From a virus (taxonomy: Duplodnaviria > Heunggongvirae > Uroviricota > Caudoviricetes), in the IMG/VR virus record IMGVR_UViG_2917413769_000005: 30,838 nucleotides of DNA. One strand, 5' to 3'. The position numbers and the translations under genes were made by a program. How positions within the stretch are numbered: position 1 is the first letter of the stretch; every line of letters starts with the position of its first letter. The notes below the pieces were generated by a model. That model searched no databases and was not told where the DNA came from. It was given only the letters and a program-made list of their open reading frames with translations. This document shows positions 2,043-27,184 of the stretch, one piece after another.

Positions 2043-3269
2043 ATGGGGGATTATCACTGCGAACTCAATAACGTAATGGTGGAAACTATGGCGGAAGATC
2101 GCTTTCATGGTGCCCGCATCCGGGAGAATACCGACCTTGTGGCGGCTATCAATGACATTGAATCGAATGTCATTGGGGTCGTCGCCGTGGCGGATGATGC
2201 CGATGCGGAAGCCTTTCCCCTGAATACCCCCGTGTTAGTGACGCGGGTTAACAACGTGCTGGGTAAGGCGGGTAAAACCGGCTCCCTGTACAAAACGCTT
2301 AAGGCCATCGCTGACCAGACCAGCCCGAAGGTGATCGTTGTGCGCGTGGCAGCAGCTACGGAAGAGGAAGGCGGTAAAACGCAGGCACAGCTTATCATGG
2401 GCGGCACGGCAGAAGACGGCAGCTATACCGGCATGTACGCATTCCTGACGGCAGAACAGAAGGTCGGCTATCGTCCGCGCATTCTGGCTGTGCCGGGATA
2501 CGACACGGAAGAAGTGACCTCCGCGTTGTGCGTCATTGCGCAAAACCTGCGCGCGTTTGTCTATGCCAGTTGTTACGGCTGTAAGACGATGGCGGAAGCC
2601 ATCACCTATCGCGCAACCTTCGCCTACCGCGAACTTATGCTTATCTGGCCTGATTTCATCGCCTATAACCCGCTGACCGGAGAAAACGAAACCTTCCCGG
2701 CCCCGGCGTATGCCTGCGGCCTGCGTGCGCTGATTGACAACAATCAGGGCTGGCATAAATCGCTTTCCAACGTATCAGTCAACAACGTGCTGGGTATTTC
2801 TCAGGATGTTTTCTGGTCGCTTCAGGCAGAAGACAGCGACGCGAACGAACTGAACAACAAGGAGATCACGACGCTCATCAAGCGTAACGGATTCCGGTTC
2901 TGGGGAAACCGCGTCACGGATACCAAAGATTACATCTTTGAGGTTTATACCCGTACCGCCCAGATTCTGGCTGACAGCATTGCGGAAGCGCAGTTTGAGG
3001 CCATTGACGAACCGCTTACCCCAGCGAACGTCAAGGACGTGGTGAGCGGTATCAGCGGGAAACTCAGCTCGCTGGTGACGCAGGGGCGGCTAATCGGCGC
3101 TGAATGCTGGTTTGATATCCTGGATAACCCGACAACCGGGCTTCGACAGGGTCAGGTGCGCATTCGCTATAAATATACGCCGGTTCCGCCGATGGAGGAT
3201 CTGACGATGTACCAGACCTTCACCGATGAATACTTTGAATCGGCGTTCTCTTCGCTGGGAGGTGCATAA
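2043..3269 (+). CDS. FI: contractile tail sheath protein
   Basis: 408 aa; N-terminal MGDYH and overall pattern (DADAEAFPLN, RAFVYAS, GFRFWGNR, YKYTPVPPMEDL) match P2 FI. Confidence 0.9.
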   Translation: MGDYHCELNNVMVETMAEDRFHGARIRENTDLVAAINDIESNVIGVVAVADDADAEAFPLNTPVLVTRVNNVLGKAGKTGSLYKTLKAIADQTSPKVIVVRVAAATEEEGGKTQAQLIMGGTAEDGSYTGMYAFLTAEQKVGYRPRILAVPGYDTEEVTSALCVIAQNLRAFVYASCYGCKTMAEAITYRATFAYRELMLIWPDFIAYNPLTGENETFPAPAYACGLRALIDNNQGWHKSLSNVSVNNVLGISQDVFWSLQAEDSDANELNNKEITTLIKRNGFRFWGNRVTDTKDYIFEVYTRTAQILADSIAEAQFEAIDEPLTPANVKDVVSGISGKLSSLVTQGRLIGAECWFDILDNPTTGLRQGQVRIRYKYTPVPPMEDLTMYQTFTDEYFESAFSSLGGA

Positions 3270-3785
3270 ATGGCGGTTCCCCACAAACTGCGCCTGTTCA
3301 CCTGCTTTGTGAACGGCAGCAACTGCATCGGCAAAGTCTCTTCCGTGACGCTGCCAAAGCTGACACGTAAAACGGAAGACTTTCAGGGCGGCGGGATGAT
3401 TGGATCCGCTGCGGTGGATCTCGGTCTGGACAGTGGCGCGCTGGATACCACGATGGTGGTTGGCGGTCTGGTTCAGTCGCTTCTGCTGAACTACTGCGGC
3501 GATATCGACGAGACCCGCTTCCGCTTCGCCGGCGAGTATTACACCGATGGTGAAAGCCTGCTGGTTGAGGTCGAACTGCGCGGCCGCATCACCGAAATGG
3601 ACGGCGGTGAAAGCAAGCAGGGAGAAGACACCTCCGTCAGCTACACGATGAAGAACACCTACTACAAGCTCACCATCGACGATAAGCCGTTGTTTGAGTT
3701 TGATCTGCTGAACTTCATCTACAAGAAAGACGGCAAGAATATCTACCCTGACCGCATTACGTCTGCGCTGGGAATGGGTAACTGA
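3270..3785 (+). CDS. FII: tail tube protein
   Basis: 171 aa; VTLPKLTRKTEDFQGGGMIGSAAVDLGLD matches P2 FII; starts directly after the FI stop. Confidence 0.9.
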   Translation: MAVPHKLRLFTCFVNGSNCIGKVSSVTLPKLTRKTEDFQGGGMIGSAAVDLGLDSGALDTTMVVGGLVQSLLLNYCGDIDETRFRFAGEYYTDGESLLVEVELRGRITEMDGGESKQGEDTSVSYTMKNTYYKLTIDDKPLFEFDLLNFIYKKDGKNIYPDRITSALGMGN

Positions 3786-3833
3786 TTAACCTGATAAGTG
3801 GCGGCACACCCGTGCCGCCCGGAGTATTCAACA

Positions 3834-4151
3834 ATGAGCAAAAAAAACGATAACGCCATTACGCTGGCAAAACCCGTTGTTCGCGGCGATGAGAAAATTA
3901 CTCAGGTAACGATCACTGATGAGATCAAACAGGCTGGTTCCCTGCGCGGGCTGAAGCTGGTTAACGTGATGAATATGGATGTGGATTCAGTAGCGATATT
4001 GCTGACCCGCGTCACGTCACCGCGCCTCAAACAAACCGAGATCAACGAAATGGATACCCGTGATTTTGTCAGCCTGTCAGAAGCGCTCGTCCCTTTTTTG
4101 ACGCCTGCGGGGTCTGGAGCATCGAACGAGGCGGAGACGGAGAATCAGTAA
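3834..4151 (+). CDS. E: tail assembly chaperone E
   Basis: ATG at 3834 (MSKKNDNAITLAKPVVRGDEK) with GGAG 9 nt upstream; contains slippery T_TTT_TTG at 4094-4100 near its 3' end as in P2 E. Confidence 0.8.
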   Translation: MSKKNDNAITLAKPVVRGDEKITQVTITDEIKQAGSLRGLKLVNVMNMDVDSVAILLTRVTSPRLKQTEINEMDTRDFVSLSEALVPFLTPAGSGASNEAETENQ

Positions 4152-4312
4152 CACTCCTGCGGTTCGACCTGATCGACGATCTGGTCGCTGATATCGCGGT
4201 TGTTTTCAACTGGCCGCCCTCTGAAGTCTTCACGATGGAACTGGGCGAAGTCATAGCCTGGCGTGAGCGGGCGGCTGTCCGAAGTGGAGCCAGTGACAGT
4301 GAAAAGCCTTAA
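3834..4312 (+). CDS. tail assembly chaperone E+E' fusion made by -1 programmed ribosomal frameshift
   Basis: Slippery heptamer TTTTTTG at 4094-4100; the -1 frame reads on through ...WPPSEVFTMELGEVIAWRERAAVRSG... to TAA at 4310-4312, overlapping the start of T. Confidence 0.6.
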
Positions 4313-6797
4313 TATCCGCGTCGCGTTCAGCGCGATCGATAAACTTACCCGCCCGGTCAATGCCGCCCGCCAGAGTGCGGGCGGTTTGTCTGAATCCCTC
4401 AAAAAAACGCAATCCAGCATTAAAGATCTGGACAGCCAGTCCCGCACGTTCAACCGTCTGCGCGACAGCGTACAAAAGACCTCTCGCAAAATTGACGAAG
4501 CCAGCCGGACGCTTGAAGGGCTGAATCAGGCGCAGCGGGAAGGTACACAGCTTACAGACAAGCAAAAAGCACATATGGCAGCACTGGCCGCAAAGCTGGA
4601 GCGCCTTAACTCTGCACGCACGCAGGAAATGGTTAAGCTGCGTGCTGCCTCACAGGCGCTGCGCAGCCACGGCGTTTCACTGGTCGGCAGTGATCGCACC
4701 ATTCAGAGCGCGATACGTCGAACCGAACAGTACAACCAGACGCTGGAGCGGGAACGGCGACAGCTTGCCGCTGTCACACAGGCACGGGCGCGCTATGACC
4801 AGATGCAGCAAACAGCGGGTAAACTTCGCGGCGGTGGCACGATGGCCGTTGCCGGGGCCACTGCTGCCGGTTACGCAGCGGGACGCTTCTTATCCCCCGC
4901 TGTTGGGTTTGACCGGGAAATGTCCCGCGTGCAGGCGCTGACCCGTATAGATAAAAGCTCAACAGACTTTTCAGCACTTCGTGAACAGGCCAAAAAGCTG
5001 GGCGCTGAAACGCAGTTCACCACGACTGACGCCGCCAGCGGGCAGGCGTTTCTCGCTATGGCCGGTTTCACTCCGCAGGCCATTCAGGCAGCACTGCCCG
5101 GCGTGCTCAATATGGCACTGGCCGGTGGCATGGATTTAGGTGAAAGCGCCGATATCAGCTCAAACATCCTGTCTCAGTTCCGCCTCGATCCCAAAGAAAT
5201 GGATCGCGTCAGTGACGTATTAACTGGCGCGTTCACACGTACCAACACCGATCTGCAAAATATCGGTGAGGCTATGAAGTACGCCGGGACAGGTCTTTCC
5301 AATCTTGGCGTCAGTGTTGAACAGACAACAGCCATGATCGGCGTGATGGCAAACGTTGGCCTGCGCGGGAGTATCGCCGGGACAGGATTACAGGCCGCGT
5401 TTTCACGCCTTGCCGCGCCAACCGGCAGGGCAAAAACCGCTCTCAAAGAACTGGGAGTAGACGTTGCTGATGCCACGGGGAAAATGCGCCCTGCTGAAGA
5501 GGTTCTCACTGAACTCTATAAAAAGATCAGCAAGTACGGCGATACCGACAAGCTCTCTTTCTTTAAAGATATCGCCGGTGAAGAGGCGTCAAAGTCATTG
5601 CAGGCACTGGTTATGTCAGCCGGGAGCGGCGAACTTCAAAAGCTGCTGGAAGCACTGAAAAACGCCAAAGGTGAGGCACAGAAAGCCGCCAAAATAATGG
5701 CGGATAACCTTGATGGCGATCTCAAGAATCTGGACAGCGCATGGGAAGGGTTTCGCATCCAGATTAACGATCTCGTCGATAACCAGCTTCGCGCCCTGAC
5801 TCAGGGGCTGAGTGATGTTGTGGGGAATATGACGCAGTGGGCGAAGGAGAATCCGAAGCTCGCTCAATCCCTGCTGGTTGTCGGCGGCAGCATTCTGGCA
5901 CTGACCGCCGCCATTGGCGGCACATCGCTGGCGATCGGCCTGCTGATGGGGCCACTGGCTAAACTCCAGTTAGGTTTTACCCTATTGACAGGGGGCGCAA
6001 CCGGAACAATCTCCGCCCTACGAACGCTCGGAACAGCTTCCGGCCCGGCAATGGCAAGTGTGCGCGGTTGGGGGCCTGTTCTCACATCAATGCTTAGTAA
6101 GCTGCGAGGCATATCGATCATCACGCCCGGCATTCGTGCCGGTCTTATGGGTGCGTTTCTTTCCCCAGGGGCTGCATTAGGATCTCTGTTCAAAAACATC
6201 GGAATGCTCGCTCTTCGCCTGACAGGCTTTACGACCATATGGAGCATTATCACGACCTCAGTATCTGTACTGGGTGCAGCGCTCTCACTTCTACTTAGTC
6301 CGATTGGTCTGATAGCGGCGGCTTTTATCGCTGCCGGATTGCTAATCTGGAGATTCTGGGAGCCGATAAGAGCCTTTTTCACCGGTTTTTTCAGCGGAGT
6401 TATGCAGCAACTGGCACCTTTCCGTGATGCCTTTTTCCCTTTGACGCTGGCCTTCTCAGCAATAGCCAAAGTCGTTGGTGAAGTCTGGGACTGGTTTGTA
6501 AAACTCTTATCACCTGTGGAAAGTAGCCGTGAATCCCTTGATAAATGCGCATCAGCAGGGGAAACATTCGGTAAAGTCCTGGGTAGCGCCCTTCAGTTGC
6601 TGCTATTACCTCTGACAACCCTCATGGAAGGCATTGGCTGGGTACTGGAAAAACTCGGCCTTATCCCTTCTGGTCTGGAAGCTGCACGCCTGAAAGCTGA
6701 AAGCCTTAAAAAAGACCCTGTTATGTGGGAGTGGGATCCGCAGCAGAAAAAAAATGGTGCAAAAGGGATGGAACTGGTCGCCAGTCTCATCAGGTAA
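4299..6797 (+). CDS. T: tail tape measure protein, N-terminal and main part (frame 0)
   Basis: Long coiled-coil-rich then hydrophobic Gly/Ala-rich protein typical of tape measure proteins; likely GTG start at 4299 (GGAG 9 nt upstream; alternative starts 4263-4293); frame ends at TAA 6795-6797 just after an A8 run. Confidence 0.8.
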   Translation: MKSLNIRVAFSAIDKLTRPVNAARQSAGGLSESLKKTQSSIKDLDSQSRTFNRLRDSVQKTSRKIDEASRTLEGLNQAQREGTQLTDKQKAHMAALAAKLERLNSARTQEMVKLRAASQALRSHGVSLVGSDRTIQSAIRRTEQYNQTLERERRQLAAVTQARARYDQMQQTAGKLRGGGTMAVAGATAAGYAAGRFLSPAVGFDREMSRVQALTRIDKSSTDFSALREQAKKLGAETQFTTTDAASGQAFLAMAGFTPQAIQAALPGVLNMALAGGMDLGESADISSNILSQFRLDPKEMDRVSDVLTGAFTRTNTDLQNIGEAMKYAGTGLSNLGVSVEQTTAMIGVMANVGLRGSIAGTGLQAAFSRLAAPTGRAKTALKELGVDVADATGKMRPAEEVLTELYKKISKYGDTDKLSFFKDIAGEEASKSLQALVMSAGSGELQKLLEALKNAKGEAQKAAKIMADNLDGDLKNLDSAWEGFRIQINDLVDNQLRALTQGLSDVVGNMTQWAKENPKLAQSLLVVGGSILALTAAIGGTSLAIGLLMGPLAKLQLGFTLLTGGATGTISALRTLGTASGPAMASVRGWGPVLTSMLSKLRGISIITPGIRAGLMGAFLSPGAALGSLFKNIGMLALRLTGFTTIWSIITTSVSVLGAALSLLLSPIGLIAAAFIAAGLLIWRFWEPIRAFFTGFFSGVMQQLAPFRDAFFPLTLAFSAIAKVVGEVWDWFVKLLSPVESSRESLDKCASAGETFGKVLGSALQLLLLPLTTLMEGIGWVLEKLGLIPSGLEAARLKAESLKKDPVMWEWDPQQKKNGAKGMELVASLIR

Positions 6798-19857: not shown

Positions 19858-20915
19858 TGAAGAAGCGCACCTACAAAAACAAACACACCGCCAGCAGTGG
19901 CAGTGCCGGACAGCCTGATATCTCTGACGCGCTCAGAAGCGATCCGGCGCTCAGCGCCTTCACGTTTGACGGGCCATATTCGGTAACAGACGGCTATGAT
20001 CTGCTGGACAGCATGTGCTGCGTCGATAACGGCCGGTACTACGAGACGCCAATAGACTGGAAGGGGTTAACCCGTGCGTTCGCACAGTCCCCACTGCATC
20101 AGTCGGCGCTTTACTTCAAACGCAATGTGCTGACCGGGTGCTATATCCCTCATCCGTTACTCTCGCGGCAGGCCTTCTCTGCGTTTGCGCTGGACTGGTT
20201 TGTCTTCGGCAATGCCTATCTTGAGCGTCGGTCTAATCGCCTGGGAGAGCCGCTAAAACTTAAGCATGTTCCGGCGCTGAACACGCGACGGGGAAGCGAT
20301 CTTGATACCTACTGGTTTATCCGGCAGTGGAAAGATGAATATGAGTTCAAGGCGGGCGAGGTCTGCCACATCATGAACCCGGACATTCATCAGGAAATCT
20401 ACGGTATGCCGGAATACATGGGGGCGCTTCTGTCCGCCAGCCTGTCACATTCCGCCGATAAATTCCGCAAACTCTATTACGACAACGGCTCCCATGCCGG
20501 ATGCATTCTCTATGTCGGTTCGGAGAAGGTGGATCAGGAAAGCATAAAGGTGGTGCAAAAAACGCTGTCACAGGCCAGAGGGAAAGGCTCCTTCAAAAAC
20601 GTGCTGATCCACGCGCCGGGTGGCGGCAAAGACGGCGTGCAACTGTTGCCGTTCAGCCAGATATCGGCAAAGGATGAGTTTCTTAACATCAAATCAGCAA
20701 CGCGCAACGATTTGCGCGACGCTCACCGCATCCCGCCGCAACTGATGGGCGCAATGCCGGAAGGCAACGGATCGCTCGGTGATGTTGAGAAGGCTGCGCG
20801 TGTCTTCGCCATCAACGAAATGTTGCCCGTGATGGAAGCAATGAAGGGCGTCAATGACTGGCTCGGTCAGGAAGTGATCCGCTTTAATCCCTACGCTCTA
20901 CTCAAAGACGAGTGA
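19857..20915 (+). CDS. Q: portal protein Q
   Basis: 352 aa P2 gpQ-like portal. Confidence 0.9.
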   Translation: MKKRTYKNKHTASSGSAGQPDISDALRSDPALSAFTFDGPYSVTDGYDLLDSMCCVDNGRYYETPIDWKGLTRAFAQSPLHQSALYFKRNVLTGCYIPHPLLSRQAFSAFALDWFVFGNAYLERRSNRLGEPLKLKHVPALNTRRGSDLDTYWFIRQWKDEYEFKAGEVCHIMNPDIHQEIYGMPEYMGALLSASLSHSADKFRKLYYDNGSHAGCILYVGSEKVDQESIKVVQKTLSQARGKGSFKNVLIHAPGGGKDGVQLLPFSQISAKDEFLNIKSATRNDLRDAHRIPPQLMGAMPEGNGSLGDVEKAARVFAINEMLPVMEAMKGVNDWLGQEVIRFNPYALLKDE

Positions 20916-20925
20916 CCCGCCCCAC

Positions 20926-20960
20926 CCGCCGCACATCCTGCGGCGGTTCTCCTTCAGTTA
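20926..20960 (+). terminator. rho-independent terminator after Q
   Basis: Perfect hairpin CCGCCGCA-CATCC-TGCGGCGG at 20926-20946 followed by T-rich TTCTCCTTCAGTTATTTTC. Confidence 0.6.
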
Positions 20961-21282
20961 TTTTCAATTCCCGTATGACCGGCCACCACCTGAGCACCAC
21001 TCAGCACAACCTTAACCCCCCTCACTCAGAGCGCATTAGCGCCACTCTGGCAGGCGCAATCTGCATTTTACCCCGAACACATCCAGAAGTGAGAAAAACG
21101 CGCGGAGAAGGCGAAAAAGGCCGGAGAATGGCAATTAAAGGCATCACCTCCCGACCCTCCGTCGCGTGGGCTGTTCCCCCGTCACCTGCGCGCGACATTT
21201 GCTTCGTTTTTTGTGCATTTCCCGATCTGGGGGCAGACCGCGCCACCACAGGGCGGAAAGGTCATAAACAGCATCAAAAAAA

Positions 21283-21309
21283 TTGTGCAAATTTGTGCAC
21301 TATTGTGCG
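21283..21309. repeat. three TTGTGC(A/G) direct repeats at 10-bp phasing (plus a fourth TTGTGCA at 21211), inside the probable cos/packaging region
   Basis: TTGTGCA at 21283 and 21293, TTGTGCG at 21303; non-coding stretch between the convergent ends of Q and doc. Confidence 0.4.
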
Positions 21310-21366
21310 ACAGAGAAAGAAGGCCCGGAGGGAAGAAAAGCCGCCTTTAAAAGACAGCTTCTCATG

Positions 21367-21750
21367 TCAGTGGGGATTGATGGATAGTCGGCGCAAAACA
21401 GCAGCAACATCGCCACTGCTTAATGAACCCGTCGCTGCGGATACGGTCAGTTCTTCCAGTTCATTACCTTCATCACGGATATCAATACCATTGCGCTTTA
21501 AAAAAGCCATCGCAACGAAAAAGGCGGTTCGCTTATTGCCGTCATTGAAGATATGACCACGCGAAATGGCGACGAGATACATCGCAGCGAGTTCGTGAAT
21601 ATCCTCAACGCCTTCATAGTAAAGCTGGTTCTGAACACGATAAATGATCGCCTCTGCTCTTCCCGGTTCTGGCATCCCCTGAACGCCGGGCAAAGCTGCA
21701 AGCAGACGATCATGAAACGCTATCACCTCCTGAGCGCTGATCCATTTCAT
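21367..21750 (-). CDS. doc: Doc toxin (Fic-fold)
   Basis: Strong resemblance to P1 Doc including HIFNDGNKRTA Fic-type motif and PGRAEAIIYRVQ; ATG overlaps the phd stop. Confidence 0.85.
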   Translation of the reverse strand: MKWISAQEVIAFHDRLLAALPGVQGMPEPGRAEAIIYRVQNQLYYEGVEDIHELAAMYLVAISRGHIFNDGNKRTAFFVAMAFLKRNGIDIRDEGNELEELTVSAATGSLSSGDVAAVLRRLSINPH

Positions 21751-21968
21751 CTGTCAGCCAGCGCCTTAATGGTACGACCGTGTCGCCCCATAATTTCAGC
21801 AAATTCAGCATCCAGTTTTGCTTCCTGCCACGCATTGAAATCATCCCGGCTGATAAGCACAGCGGCAGAGCCATCGCGGCGGGTAATTTCTACAGGCTCG
21901 CCAGCCGTAGCCGCCTCCATTACCTCAGCAATATTTTGCCGGGCCTGAGATGTGGTATAGGTTCGCAT
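21747..21968 (-). CDS. phd: Phd/YefM-family antitoxin
   Basis: MRTYTTSQARQNIAEVMEAATAGEPVEITRRDGSAAVLIS...AKLDAEFAEI resembles P1 Phd; strong RBS AAGGAGGT 5 nt before ATG 21968. Confidence 0.8.
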   Translation of the reverse strand: MRTYTTSQARQNIAEVMEAATAGEPVEITRRDGSAAVLISRDDFNAWQEAKLDAEFAEIMGRHGRTIKALADR

Positions 21969-21978
21969 ATAACCTCCT

Positions 21979-22005
21979 TTGATGTACATATTAAATGTAC
22001 ATCAA
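21979..22005. promoter_or_regulatory. putative phd-doc operator
   Basis: Perfect inverted repeat TTGATGTACAT-ATTAA-ATGTACATCAA immediately upstream of the phd RBS; another GTACA follows at about 22011. Confidence 0.5.
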
Positions 22006-22195
22006 AAACGTACAACAAGCAACGCTATCACCTGAGCCAGACCTATTTGCATTAAGCGCCACGTTGTGGCGCTAGCGGACTCTTTGCCGCCCGCGCCCGC
22101 AGAATCGTTATAACCTGCGCAACAAGTTGCGAAGGCTATAACGATTGCCATTTGATTCTTTTCCAGTGGTCTTACACACCTGAGATAAACCCATC

Positions 22196-22705
22196 TCAGA
22201 AAACTGGATTAATTTTGCGGTGGTAGAGCACTTCCCACAGAAGCGATATCAACTCTTCCTGCCTGATATCCACGGCTTCACTGGCGTCATATTTAGCCAT
22301 CAGCTCATTGATTCGCTCAACAGACAATGGCCCTGCGGAATTTACCGCTGATCGGGAAGATGGGAGACAGCTTTCTTCAGGCGGATGCTCTTCACGCCAT
22401 TTCTTTGCCGCCCTCTCATTCATCAACTGCCATTCGGGATATCGGTTAAATAGCTCACGCTCGGTACTGGTTCGCGCATCATGGCCTTCATCTGCCAGCC
22501 GCGCTGGTTCTGGCTCGCAGCTTTCAGACAAAGCAATATCGTCGGGAGCGTCAAACGGTTTTAACCCCTTGCAGGTGCAGCAAATGCGATCATTAAAATA
22601 ATACTTTTCCTTGTAGTGCAGCTCGTTACCACACTTACGGCATCGCTTAATTTTGTTACTGATGAAATCAATTACTTCCTGCTCTCGCTGTTCTTCGTCA
22701 AACAT
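22196..22705 (-). CDS. hypothetical zinc-ribbon protein
   Basis: Cys cluster CRKCGNELHYKEKYYFNDRICCTCKG; sits where P2 has orf91; 5' end overlaps the 3' end of A; start uncertain (22705 or 22747). Confidence 0.5.
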   Translation of the reverse strand: MFDEEQREQEVIDFISNKIKRCRKCGNELHYKEKYYFNDRICCTCKGLKPFDAPDDIALSESCEPEPARLADEGHDARTSTERELFNRYPEWQLMNERAAKKWREEHPPEESCLPSSRSAVNSAGPLSVERINELMAKYDASEAVDIRQEELISLLWEVLYHRKINPVF

Positions 22706-25281
22706 ACGCGCTGCCCCTGATTCCTGGTGCCAAACAACCTGTCCCACGCAGCCGGATCAGCTTTTTTCAACATTTCCGCATAGCTGCCAACGGGATCATG
22801 CCTGATATCTCTGCTGTCAACATTATGACTTAGCTTCATATGCTGCCACAAATCGGCAGTCTTACGGTCAGCTCCGTTATCTTTTCTGCGCCTCAGCTCT
22901 CCGCTGCTGGTTGCGGAGACAATAAAGCCATCAATTCGCAAACGCTCACCGCGTAGCAATAACGTTAACTGACCTGTGCTCAGTTCTATGCCTATAGATT
23001 TGGCAAAATCATCCAGTGCCGCAATGCGATCGACTGATACAGGAACTGGCCCGGTAACAGCAGGCATATCCCTTTCCTGCTGCCTCAATTCCTGAGCAAC
23101 TTTTAGATAGCTCTCGGCCCTGGCCTGCTCAATATCATCACAATCTGATGCCGTAATGGCATTAGCCAGCGCCTCAAACTCATCAGCAGGTGATTTTTGC
23201 CGTTCCGGTTTGTAGTTTCTGATGCTTTCGTTGAGCCTTTTTTTCTGCTCGTGGGTCATTTGACCAATTTCATACTGTTCAGGCTCAACTGGTGGCGAAT
23301 TTTCACCCTCTGAATTTGTATGTTTTTTGACCTCAGTACAGTTATTGACACGAGTCCTAGAGGGCGCGGACGCGCCCCGAAGGTCAAAATCAAAGTCAAC
23401 GGCCTGCCCGGAGTCGTCTAAAACTTCCGGTTTCTTACGCACAATGCGGTAGGTATGCAGGCGGGTTTCAATTGGTGGGATGTGAACGGCCGGCATCATC
23501 AGACCTTTGATAAGATCCAGATACTCGCCGTAATCATTTGGTTCGTCTTTCTGCTGGTACCAAATGCGCAACGGCAGATCACGGCGGGCAACCAACGCCC
23601 CGCCTTGCAATTGGGTGTATTGCTGCCAGTCGCCAGCATCCGCAGCACGGTGCAGCTCAGCAAATAGCGGGTTTATCTTGTCGGCCTGTTCCTGATTGCG
23701 GAACCGGCGCAGCTCACGCCAGACAGATACCGGCGCGCCGCCCAGAAACTGAAACTGACGGATGCCCCAGCAAGATGCCCAGGCGGTTGCATGTTTTGAA
23801 GTTTCTTTCAGCGGCCTGCCGCTCTCGTCGTCGGTTTCACCGTCGAGCGCGTAGCCGTCAATATTCTTACTGATGTACTTCACCACATAGCCGGTGGCGC
23901 TGCCGATTTCATGATCGATCGGCTTCATATCAAAACGCGGTTGGTTGCCGTGTTTGCCCTGCAACTCTTCCGCATCCTCGCGGGTTGCGTAGTCTTCCAT
24001 CACTTCCAGCAGCTCGGCAGAATGTTCCGGCAGGGAGAACAGCAGGCCGTGCCAGTGCGGCGTACCATCGTGATGAGACTCAGCCACCCGCAAACCAAAA
24101 ACAGGGATTTCACGGCGGGCCAGCTCAGCGCGGATCTGTTGCCATACCCGGTTAAGATAACGCTGCGTGGCTCTTGGGCTGGCACCGTTCCATTTGGCAT
24201 TACGATGACCGAATACGGTATATGCGTGGTATTTGGATGGCGCTGTCAGGGTAAAAAACTGTCCCGCGTATCCGCTTTCGGTGGCGACTTTCTCAAAACC
24301 ACCAATGCGGGTCATGAGTTCAACGCGGCGTAATGCTGGATTAGAAATGCTCTTATCGATCTGCTCAATAAGCGAAATACGCTCTTTGGTGTCCTGGTCT
24401 TCCAGCTCAAGGCGAGCCATGATCGCGCGGCTGCGTTTGCGCCTGGCATCCCACTCATCAACGTGGTGCTTACTGCAATAAGGCGCAGCGCCCCGCTTCA
24501 CATCACCAAAGGCGATATGCAGGTGCTCACGCCAGCGCGCCGCGTACTTTTTCAGGTTACGATGCCAATAGCGATCATCCAGCATCTTACTGATGCCAGT
24601 AGTAGCCTCATCAATAAACAGCGTTCCCCGGCAATACTTTGCCCAGCTCGGAGGCGTCAGGAAGAAAAGCCGCGCGAGGATAGCCGCTTCGGTGTAAAGG
24701 TATCCGGCATATTTGCGATCACTCTGAGTCTCTACCGTTTCGTGAACTTCGCTCAGCACAGACCGCATATAGATAGCAATATCCTGCGCCAGCAGCTCAA
24801 CATCTTCCGGCGTGAAATCCGGCAGGCGGTTAAAGCGCTCAACCAATCCGTGAAGAGTGTGAAACGTGTGGTAAAGCGGGTTTACCCCTTTGAATGCTGT
24901 ATCAGCCTGAGATTTAGCCTCATCGGTCACCGCAATAGCGTATTGCTCATTCACCATGTTGATGGGCGGGAGATCCCTGCGAATAATATCGCGTAGCGCC
25001 AGACGGGCGATGTGCCTGCCCTTCATGGTGTGAATGCTGTCAATACGGGAAGCCAGACGCAGGCGAATAAAGCGAGGTAGCGGCGCAAGGGTAACTTTCA
25101 CCCACGCCAAAAACTCCTGTTCTTGACCCAGCTCGACTAGATCAACAACGGGAGTCTTATCAACACAAATGGCAGCTTTCGGCTTCTGCCATTCGTAAGC
25201 GTACCGGGTGGCGTCTGGTGCGCTACCCGGATACGGAGGGGGCGGCGTTGGAGCGCCACGCCCACTGGCTGCGGTGGTCAT
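22672..25281 (-). CDS. A: replication initiation endonuclease A (rolling-circle HUH type)
   Basis: 869 aa; HUH-like motif ESHHDGTPHWHGLLF and Tyr region GYVVKYISKNIDGY as in P2 gpA; position upstream of the cos-proximal accessory slot. Confidence 0.85.
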   Translation of the reverse strand: MTTAASGRGAPTPPPPYPGSAPDATRYAYEWQKPKAAICVDKTPVVDLVELGQEQEFLAWVKVTLAPLPRFIRLRLASRIDSIHTMKGRHIARLALRDIIRRDLPPINMVNEQYAIAVTDEAKSQADTAFKGVNPLYHTFHTLHGLVERFNRLPDFTPEDVELLAQDIAIYMRSVLSEVHETVETQSDRKYAGYLYTEAAILARLFFLTPPSWAKYCRGTLFIDEATTGISKMLDDRYWHRNLKKYAARWREHLHIAFGDVKRGAAPYCSKHHVDEWDARRKRSRAIMARLELEDQDTKERISLIEQIDKSISNPALRRVELMTRIGGFEKVATESGYAGQFFTLTAPSKYHAYTVFGHRNAKWNGASPRATQRYLNRVWQQIRAELARREIPVFGLRVAESHHDGTPHWHGLLFSLPEHSAELLEVMEDYATREDAEELQGKHGNQPRFDMKPIDHEIGSATGYVVKYISKNIDGYALDGETDDESGRPLKETSKHATAWASCWGIRQFQFLGGAPVSVWRELRRFRNQEQADKINPLFAELHRAADAGDWQQYTQLQGGALVARRDLPLRIWYQQKDEPNDYGEYLDLIKGLMMPAVHIPPIETRLHTYRIVRKKPEVLDDSGQAVDFDFDLRGASAPSRTRVNNCTEVKKHTNSEGENSPPVEPEQYEIGQMTHEQKKRLNESIRNYKPERQKSPADEFEALANAITASDCDDIEQARAESYLKVAQELRQQERDMPAVTGPVPVSVDRIAALDDFAKSIGIELSTGQLTLLLRGERLRIDGFIVSATSSGELRRRKDNGADRKTADLWQHMKLSHNVDSRDIRHDPVGSYAEMLKKADPAAWDRLFGTRNQGQRVCLTKNSESRK

Positions 25282-26297
25282 TTCACCGCATCCATGTAAG
25301 CACTTATGAAGGTTGCTGCGACTTCCGCGCAGATGGCATTTCCGTAGGCGCGCAACTGGCCCACTCTTCCGGCAACCCCATTAACCAGCGGCTTAAGTCC
25401 TGGTTTAACTGGCCTCCACTTTCCATCATGGCAGAAGAGCCAGTCAGCATCTTGCCAGAAGCCGTTAACCTGATGGGGCCAATCATTTTTGATTGCTGGG
25501 TCAGACTGCTGCCCGTCATCGCCGGAGTGATCCCCCTCCCGCCCCTGGTTCCGTCCGATGCACTCGGAGTTGTCCAACCGGATAACTGTGCTGTCACATC
25601 CAGCCGATCCGTTGACAGCTTCCCGTTGCGAATCCTCCCTCCCTGATACCCCCCTTTCCCATCCGTTGCTGTTGGAGTATTCCACCCCGCTAGGCAGGCA
25701 AAATCTTGCAGATTCGACTGCCTGCCCGCCATCATTCTGGCTATAACTTTCAATGGATCCTGATACGCGTTTTTGACGTTGCTCGCGTTCGGAGTGGGCC
25801 ACCCAGAAGAGGCGCTGTCTTATATGCGGGGCACCGAAGCCCGCAGCGCAAAGATCGAGAGCTGTTGCGGCGTAGCCCGTTCCTTCCAAGTCAGTCTGTA
25901 CAATGTCGAACCAACCGAGGCCGTCCTTGCTTGCAACCTGCTCACCAAAGACAGTCTCAGGGCGGCACTGCTCAATGAGATAGTGGAAATGGGGCCAAAG
26001 GTGCCGCTCGTCAGTAACCCCTGCTCTTTTGCCTGACTGGCTGAAAGGTTGGCACGGGCAAGAGCCTGTCCAGATAGGGCGATCGTCCGCCCATCCAGCC
26101 CGGCGCAGGGCGTAAGACCAGACGCCGATCCCTGCAAAGAAATGGCATTGAGTGAATCCGTTAAGGTCATTTGGTGTTACTTCCTCAATAGAACGGGTGT
26201 CAACAACGCCCGGCGCTATGTGCCCAGCGTCAATAAGATTGCGCAGCCATTGAGCCGCAAAGGGATCGATCTCGTTGTAATAAGCCGTCACAATCAC
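25278..26297 (-). CDS. C5-cytosine DNA methyltransferase (frame integrity uncertain)
   Basis: Frame A carries FFAGIGVW (motif I-like), GSCPCQPFS (PCQ), FGEQV (ENV-like), APHIRQRLFWV (motif VIII-like) and C-terminal LRAYGNAICAEVA (motif X-like); GTG start overlaps the Dam stop; middle part is low complexity. Confidence 0.6.
   Translation of the reverse strand: MIVTAYYNEIDPFAAQWLRNLIDAGHIAPGVVDTRSIEEVTPNDLNGFTQCHFFAGIGVWSYALRRAGWADDRPIWTGSCPCQPFSQSGKRAGVTDERHLWPHFHYLIEQCRPETVFGEQVASKDGLGWFDIVQTDLEGTGYAATALDLCAAGFGAPHIRQRLFWVAHSEREQRQKRVSGSIESYSQNDGGQAVESARFCLPSGVEYSNSNGWERGVSGREDSQREAVNGSAGCDSTVIRLDNSECIGRNQGREGDHSGDDGQQSDPAIKNDWPHQVNGFWQDADWLFCHDGKWRPVKPGLKPLVNGVAGRVGQLRAYGNAICAEVAATFISAYMDAVK
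25307..25819 (-). other. alternate-frame open segment inside the C5 methyltransferase gene, with G-W-x-T-P-x-A-x-D repeats and a motif IX-like RWLMGLPEEW
   Basis: Frame open from the TAA at 25820-25822 to the stop at 25304-25306; three repeats (GWPTPNASN, GWNTPTATD, GWTTPSASD) differ mainly at this frame's synonymous positions. Confidence 0.4.
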
Positions 26298-27184
26298 GCC
26301 CCCTCAGCACACTGCCCGCAGCTCTCACAGTTCCCGCAACCACCTGCCGGGCATCCCTCAACGATGCCCAAAGTGCCGATCACCTCTTTGGCCTTCTGGC
26401 GGTTGCTGGCGTCAGTGCTAACAGAGCGCTGCACGTCGATTTCATGCAGGCGGAAACGGTGGTAAATCTCGCGGGTGGTTTCGGTGTCACTGTTGGAAAT
26501 GACAACCGGCGCGCCATATTTGCGGTTCACTTCCAGCAGCTCCGCCGCTAACTGGCGGTGGTGCTTCTCGGTGAATGGCTCGGTGTGGTATTGGGTGAAA
26601 TTGGCGGTTTCGCTGGCAGGCAGGTACGGGGGATCGCAGTAGATGGCTTCATCCGTTCCAACCATCACTTTGAGGGTGTTTTGAAACGAGCTGCACAGAA
26701 AAATAGCTTTGGTGTCGTTGGCCTTCTCAGCAAACTGGCGGATCTCCGCCTCCGGGAAGTAAGGCGCGCTTTTGTGCTGACCAAACGGGACGTTATAACC
26801 ACCGCTCTGGTTGTAACGCACCACGCCGTTGTAGCCGTGGCGGTTGAGGTACAGAAACAGAGCCGCGCGGGCCACATCAAGCAAGCCTTTTGTACCGTTG
26901 AAAATGCGGCGGTTCTGTAAGTATTCCTCTTTGGAATTGCCGGTCGCAAAGAGCGGGCGGGCAAGATCAATCACCAGCTCAGGATTGCTTTTTACCTCAC
27001 GATAAAGGCGGATCAGATCTGGGTTGATATCCGCAAGAATGTACCGGCGATAATCGGTATTGAGGAACACGGAAGCGCCGCCAACAAAAGGCTCAACGAG
27101 GCAACCAGCCTTTGGTAAATGCGGCAGTAATTCAGGCATCACGCGGCTTTTGCCACCGGGCCATTTGAGTAGAGATCGAATCAT
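26294..27184 (-). CDS. DNA adenine methyltransferase (Dam-like, D12 class)
   Basis: N-terminal KWPGGK and catalytic DPPY motifs; RBS AGGAGA 9 nt before ATG 27184; Cys-rich C-terminal tail. Confidence 0.85.
   Translation of the reverse strand: MIRSLLKWPGGKSRVMPELLPHLPKAGCLVEPFVGGASVFLNTDYRRYILADINPDLIRLYREVKSNPELVIDLARPLFATGNSKEEYLQNRRIFNGTKGLLDVARAALFLYLNRHGYNGVVRYNQSGGYNVPFGQHKSAPYFPEAEIRQFAEKANDTKAIFLCSSFQNTLKVMVGTDEAIYCDPPYLPASETANFTQYHTEPFTEKHHRQLAAELLEVNRKYGAPVVISNSDTETTREIYHRFRLHEIDVQRSVSTDASNRQKAKEVIGTLGIVEGCPAGGCGNCESCGQCAEGA

Follow-up and report, generated by a model that had tools for sequence, protein, structure and literature searches.

A phd-doc module between gpA and gpQ

The DNA stretch analysed here, IMG/VR record IMGVR_UViG_2917413769_000005, is 30,838 base pairs (bp) long and is referred to as the window in the following. 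On its minus strand it carries the antitoxin gene phd directly upstream of the toxin gene doc, with a 4-nucleotide ATGA overlap at 21747–21750. The two genes are found between the gene for a gpA-type replication initiator and the gene for the portal protein gpQ, past which terminase, scaffold and P2-type capsid genes follow. The cos-adjacent gpA–gpQ interval has been described as a hotspot for genes with accessory or anti-phage functions, such as old and tin in P2 (Rousset et al., 2022, PMC9122126). The region is very probably a self-contained P1-type Phd-Doc type II toxin-antitoxin cassette of ≈660 bp (from ≈22022 to ≈21360) that constitutes exchangeable cargo in this cos-proximal hotspot of a P2-like (Peduoviridae) prophage. 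The initial annotation of this DNA had already called both genes and their overlap, named the proteins Doc and Phd, pointed out the Fic motif HIFNDGNKR and placed the module in a cos-proximal accessory slot, and on all these points our results agree with it.

Both proteins score above the curated cut-offs of their families. Doc is matched by the Pfam family Fic (PF02661; 1.9e-11, 45.1 bits, cut-off 24) and by NCBIfam DOC_P1 (TIGR01550; 1.5e-25, 89.8 bits, curated cut-off 38.65), while Phd is matched by PhdYeFM (PF02604; 4.5e-15, 55.6 bits, cut-off 29.8) and by NCBIfam TIGR01552 (44.1 bits, cut-off 20.8). Homology to the solved structures from phage P1 extends over the full length: the P1 Doc structure 3k33 against our Doc gives E = 9.5e-35 with residues 1–122 aligned to 1–121, and the P1 Phd structure 3hry against our Phd gives E = 1.8e-11 at equal length. 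Full-length identity to the P1 proteins is 54% for Doc and 42% for Phd, and to the Salmonella chromosomal pair STM3558/STM3559 it is 58% for Doc and 52% for Phd.

The residues known to matter in the homologs are also present. The published catalytic motif of Doc is HXFX(D/N)(A/G)NKR (PMC13034048), and the segment H66-IFNDGNK-R74 fits it intact, with the same residue numbering as in P1 Doc. The motif as found here, GHIFNDGNKRTA, is identical to that of Salmonella Doc. Alanine scanning of the C-terminal segment of Salmonella Phd has revealed the hot spots F56, I59, M60, H63, L67, and L70 (PMC9207808). The corresponding residues in our Phd are F56, I59, M60, H63, I67, and L70, so that five of six are identical and the sixth, L67I, is a conservative exchange. 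Neither protein is new: RefSeq has MULTISPECIES Enterobacterales entries with identical sequences, correctly named Doc-family toxin and Phd/YefM antitoxin. In the searched collection, 387 indexed blocks contain this very Doc sequence, and identical proteins are found in several genera.

Three phased GTAC boxes upstream of phd

Upstream of phd we identified three short palindromic boxes at positions −45, −32, and −19 relative to the phd ATG. Their GTAC cores start at 21984, 21997, and 22010 and are therefore spaced 13 + 13 bp, an arrangement of three GTAC motifs that occurs only once in the window. The proximal and middle boxes share the sequence ATGTACAT, and the distal box reads TTGTACGT. The phd-doc operator of P1 has been described as a pair of 8-bp palindromes, each with a GTAC core, whose centres are 13 bp apart; each palindrome binds one Phd dimer, and Doc acts as a corepressor that promotes cooperative binding (Kedzierska et al., PMC1802561). 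The same two-palindrome, 13-bp geometry can be read from the P1 sequence itself.

To see how general this arrangement is, the regions upstream of phd were compared for 40 homologous loci from P1, Salmonella and other Enterobacterales, with Phd identities down to ≈40%. Within the 100 nucleotides upstream of phd, all GTAC–GTAC distances of up to 30 nucleotides were either 13 (56 pairs) or 26 (18 pairs). In control stretches of the same loci, there were no GTAC pairs within this limit at −300 to −200, pairs downstream of doc were always 12 or 17 nucleotides apart, and those inside the two genes were always 7, 10, or 24 apart. At least two phased boxes were present in 38 of the 40 loci and at least three in 17, including Salmonella STM3558/9, while one locus had four. 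The consensus of the sites is T-GTAC-A followed by T-rich bases.

The initial annotation had taken a perfect inverted repeat with 11-bp arms, just 5′ of the ribosome-binding site of phd, to be the operator. The repeat is there, but its arms are 12 bp long. It is formed by the proximal box and the middle box together with symmetric flanking bases. The window contains no second inverted repeat whose arms match perfectly over 11 bp or more with no more than 10 nucleotides between them; 200 dinucleotide-preserving shuffles had on average 0.075 such repeats, and 6% of the shuffles had any. Nevertheless, the long palindrome is confined to the allele of this window. Loci with an identical Doc protein, the closest relatives included, do not keep the symmetric flanks and have four different inter-box sequences, while the GTAC cores and their spacing are invariant. 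Because these loci keep the cores and spacing but lack the long palindrome, the functional operator unit is probably the array of phased boxes rather than the palindrome as a whole. The assignment as an operator thus stands, given the P1-like place and the GTAC/13-bp signature, but not the long palindrome as its working part. The range given for the module ended at 22005 and covered two of the boxes, leaving the third outside at 22008–22015. By analogy with P1, Phd dimers would be expected to bind the boxes of this predicted operator, with Doc as a ratio-dependent corepressor.

Two further observations concern this region. In Mangrovibacter phragmitis (locus L005), a solitary cassette with a Phd of 99% identity has four phased GTAC boxes upstream of phd. 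The fourth box apparently arose by a 13-bp duplication, with GTACATCTATGTT present twice, and the cassette adjoins an integrase-like fragment. A longer reading of phd in our window, 80 amino acids (aa) from an ATG at 21989, was rejected, since its start codon falls within one of the predicted boxes and P1 Phd has 73 aa, as does the shorter form.

Predicted promoter, cassette limits and hairpins

A promoter for phd-doc can be predicted at the boxes (Table 1). Its placement is suggested by the sequence together with conservation in the closest subfamily, which shares the pattern TTGCNT, N17, TACAT(T/C) upstream of phd. In the predicted arrangement, the distal box would lie in the promoter spacer, the middle box on the −10 hexamer and the proximal box on the expected start site. 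The AGGAGG ribosome-binding site in front of phd is kept in relatives as well. Solitary chromosomal cassettes in Mangrovibacter, Pseudescherichia and Pantoea are homologous to the window from 22017–22026 down to 21360–21389 (in one case to 21277). From these limits the mobile unit appears to run from the predicted −35 hexamer to just past doc, which lends independent support to where the promoter has been placed.

Two hairpins were noted downstream of doc. RNA folding of 21268–21366 gave −28.5 kcal/mol (z = −2.6), and the hairpin at 21335–21363 has a conserved sequence in loci L069–L078 and is possibly a terminator or a 3′ stabiliser of the mRNA. The second, at 21276–21300, is one of two sites returned by a terminator scan for which 1.8 were expected, and is not significant on its own. 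Next to it, at 21283–21308 on the minus strand, between doc and the candidate cos site, are three direct GCACAA repeats with a period of 10 bp followed by a run of seven T. These repeats are kept in 10 of 10 sibling loci and are covered by the homology with the Mangrovibacter copy that extends to 21277; they may represent a terminator or a protein-binding array.

A strong structure was seen on the other side of the cassette, at 22050–22160 (minus strand), between a 169-aa open reading frame (ORF) and the phd promoter. Here a 21-bp hairpin (arms 22103–22123 and 22126–22146) is followed by two GC-rich hairpins, and the segment folds with −50 kcal/mol (z = −5.4), a stability reached by 0 of 200 shuffles. 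The structure is partly conserved in sibling prophages with different upstream ORFs, and may serve to insulate or terminate the early operon, or may mark a boundary at which the slot recombines. A search against Rfam gave no match in the whole window at the gathering thresholds and none in 20900–22800 at E ≤ 1, so the hairpins fit no known RNA family.

Table 1. Position of the phd-doc cassette, its predicted control elements and the borders of the slot in the window.
Feature	Position	Strand	Remarks
gpQ, portal protein, 352 aa	19857–20915	plus	Downstream border of the slot; phrog_68 1.3e-144, PF04860 in equivalent loci
Candidate cos core GGTGACGGGGGAACAGCCC	21168–21186	minus	Weak candidate, from alignment with P2
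Terminator-like hairpin	21276–21300	minus	GTGCA/TGCAC, then T7 run; weak, from terminator scan
Hairpin with 13-bp stem	21335–21363	minus	Begins 4 nucleotides past the doc stop codon
doc, toxin gene	21367–21750	minus	127 aa, Fic-fold kinase; start overlaps the phd stop codon (ATGA)
Doc catalytic motif codons, H66-I-F-N-D-G-N-K-R74	21529–21555	minus	Read from the sequence
phd, antitoxin gene	21747–21968	minus	73 aa; N-terminal part is the DNA-binding and dimerisation domain
Doc-neutralising C-terminal segment of Phd	21750–21815	minus	Residues ≈52–73
Ribosome-binding site AGGAGG	21972–21977	minus	3 nucleotides (21969–21971) before the phd ATG at 21968; read from the sequence
Long inverted repeat	21978–22006		Perfect 12-bp arms 21978–21989 and 21995–22006, 5-nucleotide spacer
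Proximal operator box ATGTACAT (predicted)	21982–21989		Perfect 8-bp palindrome, GTAC core 21984–21987
Predicted phd-doc promoter	21994–22022	minus	−35 TTGCTT 22017–22022, 17-nucleotide spacer, −10 TACATT 21994–21999
Middle operator box ATGTACAT (predicted)	21995–22002		Perfect 8-bp palindrome, GTAC core 21997–22000; overlaps the predicted −10 hexamer
Distal operator box TTGTACGT (predicted)	22008–22015		Imperfect palindrome, GTAC core 22010–22013
gpA-type replication initiator, 869 aa	22672–25281	minus	Upstream border of the slot; phrog_91 1.7e-251, PF05840 Phage_GPA in equivalent loci

The slot and its cargo

In all 10 sampled places with the exact Doc protein, the gene order was gpA, a small variable ORF (61, 95, 112, 125, or 169 aa), phd, doc and the portal gene. 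Among 10 places with an identical portal protein (including L081–L090), at least five types of cargo were found in the slot. Besides Phd-Doc, these were a helix-turn-helix (HTH)/Peptidase_M78 protein plus a 197-aa protein, an S8 peptidase plus an AAA ATPase (the same as in Enterobacter phage phiT5282H, L079), a YafO toxin plus a 197-aa protein, and a different, second-type Fic gene on the opposite strand. As different cargo is found behind an identical portal, the slot is variable within this phage lineage. Several of the alternative cargoes are toxin-antitoxin-like.

The guanine-plus-cytosine content is 0.46–0.51 at ≈21250–23350, a segment that takes in the cargo and the 169-aa ORF and reaches about 220 codons into the 3′ end of gpA, against 0.55–0.58 for the backbone. 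The length of gpA varies between 749 and 875 aa among the siblings. The low values over the 3′ end of gpA and this variation in length indicate that the 3′ part of the gene has seemingly been exchanged together with the slot.

The 169-aa ORF (22196–22705, minus strand) directly follows gpA. It has a CxxC...CxxC spacing and matches phrog_21788 of unknown function (1.5e-85), with no match in Pfam, NCBIfam or PADLOC. It was considered as a third component of the module and rejected: it also occurs with the unrelated M78/HTH cargo (L086), and Phd-Doc is found with the 61-, 95-, 112-, and 125-aa alternatives. Since it accompanies the M78/HTH cargo too, it is better seen as an independent variable element of the slot. 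A 49-aa ORF at 22002–22151 (minus strand) ends inside the predicted operator and was called as a gene of the same length and position in L076 and L089. It has no Pfam or PHROG family match and is probably spurious.

At the other end of the slot, bases 1–186 of P2 (cosL to the Q terminator) gave a collinear local alignment of low similarity with 20916–21366, in which 13 of 19 cosL bases are identical by hand count. This is the origin of the candidate cos core in Table 1. A second cos look-alike, GGGAAATGCAC, was spotted by eye at 21213–21223. Outside the slot, directly upstream of gpA, two ORFs of 339 and 296 aa are found at 25278–27184 (minus strand); ORFs of equal lengths in L076 match PF00145 (C5 DNA methylase) and PF02086 (MethyltransfD12).

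Occurrence and comparison with known systems

Among 5,426 complete E. coli genomes, the module was present in only one. A DNA search at near-identity with 21300–22200 against phage records gave no match. The loci L076, L084, L085, L089, and L090, which include two from assembly GCA_005781065.1, were compared with the window, and none is an exact copy of it. Close copies with 77–91% DNA identity do exist, and these sit alone among housekeeping-looking genes. One sibling prophage, L077 (GCA_042665675.1, locus 2656–5586), is decaying: its gpA is split into several short ORFs and a terminase gene was not called. Despite this decay its phd and doc are intact, which fits addiction-type retention, as a single case.

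The closest known system is the phd-doc operon of P1, an addiction operon reportedly worked out by Lehnherr in 1993, by Magnuson and Yarmolinsky, and by Garcia-Pino in 2010 and 2016. It shares with our module the order of antitoxin then toxin, the overlapping stop and start codons, the protein lengths (73 aa and 126/127 aa), the catalytic motif (HIFNDANKR in P1, HIFNDGNKR here) and the 8-bp GTAC-core palindromes, 13 bp from centre to centre, just before the ribosome-binding site. Unlike P1, which has two boxes, both downstream of the annotated −10 hexamer, the window has three, and the predicted promoter overlaps the distal and middle ones. The carrier is also different, being a plasmid prophage in P1 and an integrated P2-like prophage here.

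The closest experimentally studied pair is STM3559/STM3558 of Salmonella Typhimurium, which has three TGTACA boxes with 13-bp spacing as well as the GHIFNDGNKRTA motif and the Phd residues F56, I59, M60, H63, and L70. However, this pair occupies a fixed chromosomal site between the liv and ugp operons and not a prophage, and the flanks of its boxes and its promoter context differ. The yefM-yoeB system of E. coli has a Phd-homologous antitoxin and paired palindromes with TGTACA cores, one of which overlaps the −10 hexamer. Its boxes are 12 bp apart from centre to centre instead of 13, and its toxin is the unrelated RNase YoeB.

A Phd-family antitoxin with a Doc-type Fic protein has also been catalogued in the very same gpA–gpQ slot, namely in the P2 hotspot of E. 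coli, as system 52 'PhdYeFM_antitox | Fic' with 77 occurrences and the label toxin-antitoxin system (Rousset et al., 2022, Table S5). This is another lineage. Its Doc has 136 aa and the motif HAFHDGNKR and is 42% identical to our Doc over 105 residues, and its Phd has 114 aa and resembles ours over the first 42 residues only.

Proposed mechanism and biological role

Phosphorylation of EF-Tu at Thr382/383 with a stop of translation is known for the Doc proteins of P1 and Salmonella (PMC4803016, PMC9207808). Judging from these homologs, the Doc described here would phosphorylate EF-Tu at the same residues, translation would stop, and the C-terminal helix of Phd would block Doc. One Phd dimer might occupy each box, with Doc bridging neighbouring dimers; repression would then depend on the Phd:Doc ratio (conditional cooperativity). 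As the boxes overlap the predicted promoter spacer, −10 hexamer and start site, we propose that bound Phd excludes RNA polymerase. Phd of P1 is reportedly labile through ClpXP (cited in PMC4803016). If the present Phd is proteolytically labile like that of P1, any stop in its synthesis, whether by loss of the prophage segment or by shut-off through an infecting phage, would free Doc.

The most likely main effect of the cassette is addiction, or selfish persistence, which makes the cassette and its carrier DNA hard to lose. This is favoured because near-identical solitary cassettes are found among housekeeping-looking genes and because the cassette is intact in L077. Protection against other phages is possible as an additional benefit. 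The initial annotation had cautiously named abortive infection and prophage stabilisation as possible functions.

Several points weigh against this picture. That Doc is toxic and phosphorylates EF-Tu, and that Phd binds the boxes and is labile, is all carried over from homologs that are 42–58% identical. The precedent for addiction, P1, is a plasmid prophage, whereas the carrier here is an integrated P2-like prophage. The predicted promoter agrees with the consensus in three of six positions of the −35 hexamer and four of six of the −10 hexamer, and a consensus sigma-70 promoter scan returned no site at threshold. Finally, no experimental study of a three-box operator was found in the literature.

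Alternatively, the same molecules could owe their place in the hotspot chiefly to a defence by abortive infection. In that case a superinfecting phage would shut off host transcription or translation, Phd would decay, Doc would phosphorylate EF-Tu and the cycle of the invader would fail, leaving the lysogen population protected. Such a role would suit a slot that is a documented reservoir of anti-phage systems (PMC9122126) and that holds defence-like cargo in sibling phages (the S8 peptidase with AAA ATPase, the M78/HTH pair and YafO), and toxin-antitoxin modules are increasingly tied to defence in the literature. Doc also gave weak matches to the PADLOC families PDC-M59B (1.7e-09) and PDC-S23 (7e-09), but these are candidate families only. 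We found no publication that shows phage defence by any Phd-Doc pair. Furthermore, system 52 is labelled as a toxin-antitoxin system only, and in the supplementary files of Rousset et al. the terms Fic, Doc and Phd appear nowhere beyond the occurrence tables and the article. The close copies are moreover solitary, like selfish toxin-antitoxin cassettes. Defence as the main role is accordingly possible but clearly the less probable of the two.

A more far-reaching version joins both ideas. A chain of Phd2-Doc-Phd2-Doc-Phd2 over the whole promoter would form a sharper ratio switch than in P1, and the cassette would be kept because EF-Tu phosphorylation by Doc aborts competing phages. We consider this combination unlikely. 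If true, it would be the first demonstrated anti-phage role for the Doc kinase.

It is much less probable still that the long palindrome acts at the RNA level, as a hairpin in read-through transcripts of the gpA operon that either stops them or masks the ribosome-binding site of phd. The segment 21960–22025 can indeed fold into a 14-bp hairpin (−21.1 kcal/mol, z = −3.6) abutting AGGAGG, and two palindromic boxes, of whatever kind, are necessarily complementary to each other. Yet this hairpin has no U-tract after it, and the identical-Doc loci lose the extended pairing without compensating changes while they keep the GTAC cores and the 13-bp spacing. The phasing is also the same whether a locus has two, three or four boxes, and even where the flanks are unrelated. 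Experiments have shown that Phd binds the boxes of P1 (PMC1802561). If transcription starts where predicted, within the proximal box, the native mRNA does not contain the hairpin's 5′ arm.

That the cassette is an inactive relic, with intact-looking genes but a non-functional Doc or Phd, is the least probable explanation. In its favour, one related prophage (L077) is visibly decaying with a fragmented gpA. Against it, both genes are open over the full length known from P1, the catalytic motif and Phd hot-spot residues are intact, the exact proteins are as widespread as described above, and the cores of the predicted operator have been kept while the bases around them have drifted, which indicates purifying selection.

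Significance

Much of what is found here is already known: the protein names are in RefSeq, the mechanism proposed from P1 is textbook knowledge, and a Phd/Fic pair has been catalogued in the P2 hotspot. As a discovery the module therefore matters little, being an ordinary, automatically annotated representative of a familiar type of system. Only one point is refined: the "palindromic operator" is, as far as the sequences of the compared loci tell, a set of three short predicted Phd-binding boxes at 13 bp.

The slot with its several toxin-antitoxin-like cargoes offers a ready-made natural collection in which to ask whether modules of this type serve in phage defence or merely hitch-hike, and the ends of the mobile cassette are now defined by comparison with the solitary copies. 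The long inverted repeat of this allele illustrates that two adjacent short palindromes can by accident make one long palindrome. For P1-type Phd repressors in general, the comparison suggests a simple operator rule: two to four (T)GTAC(A) boxes in a row, each exactly 13 bp from the next.

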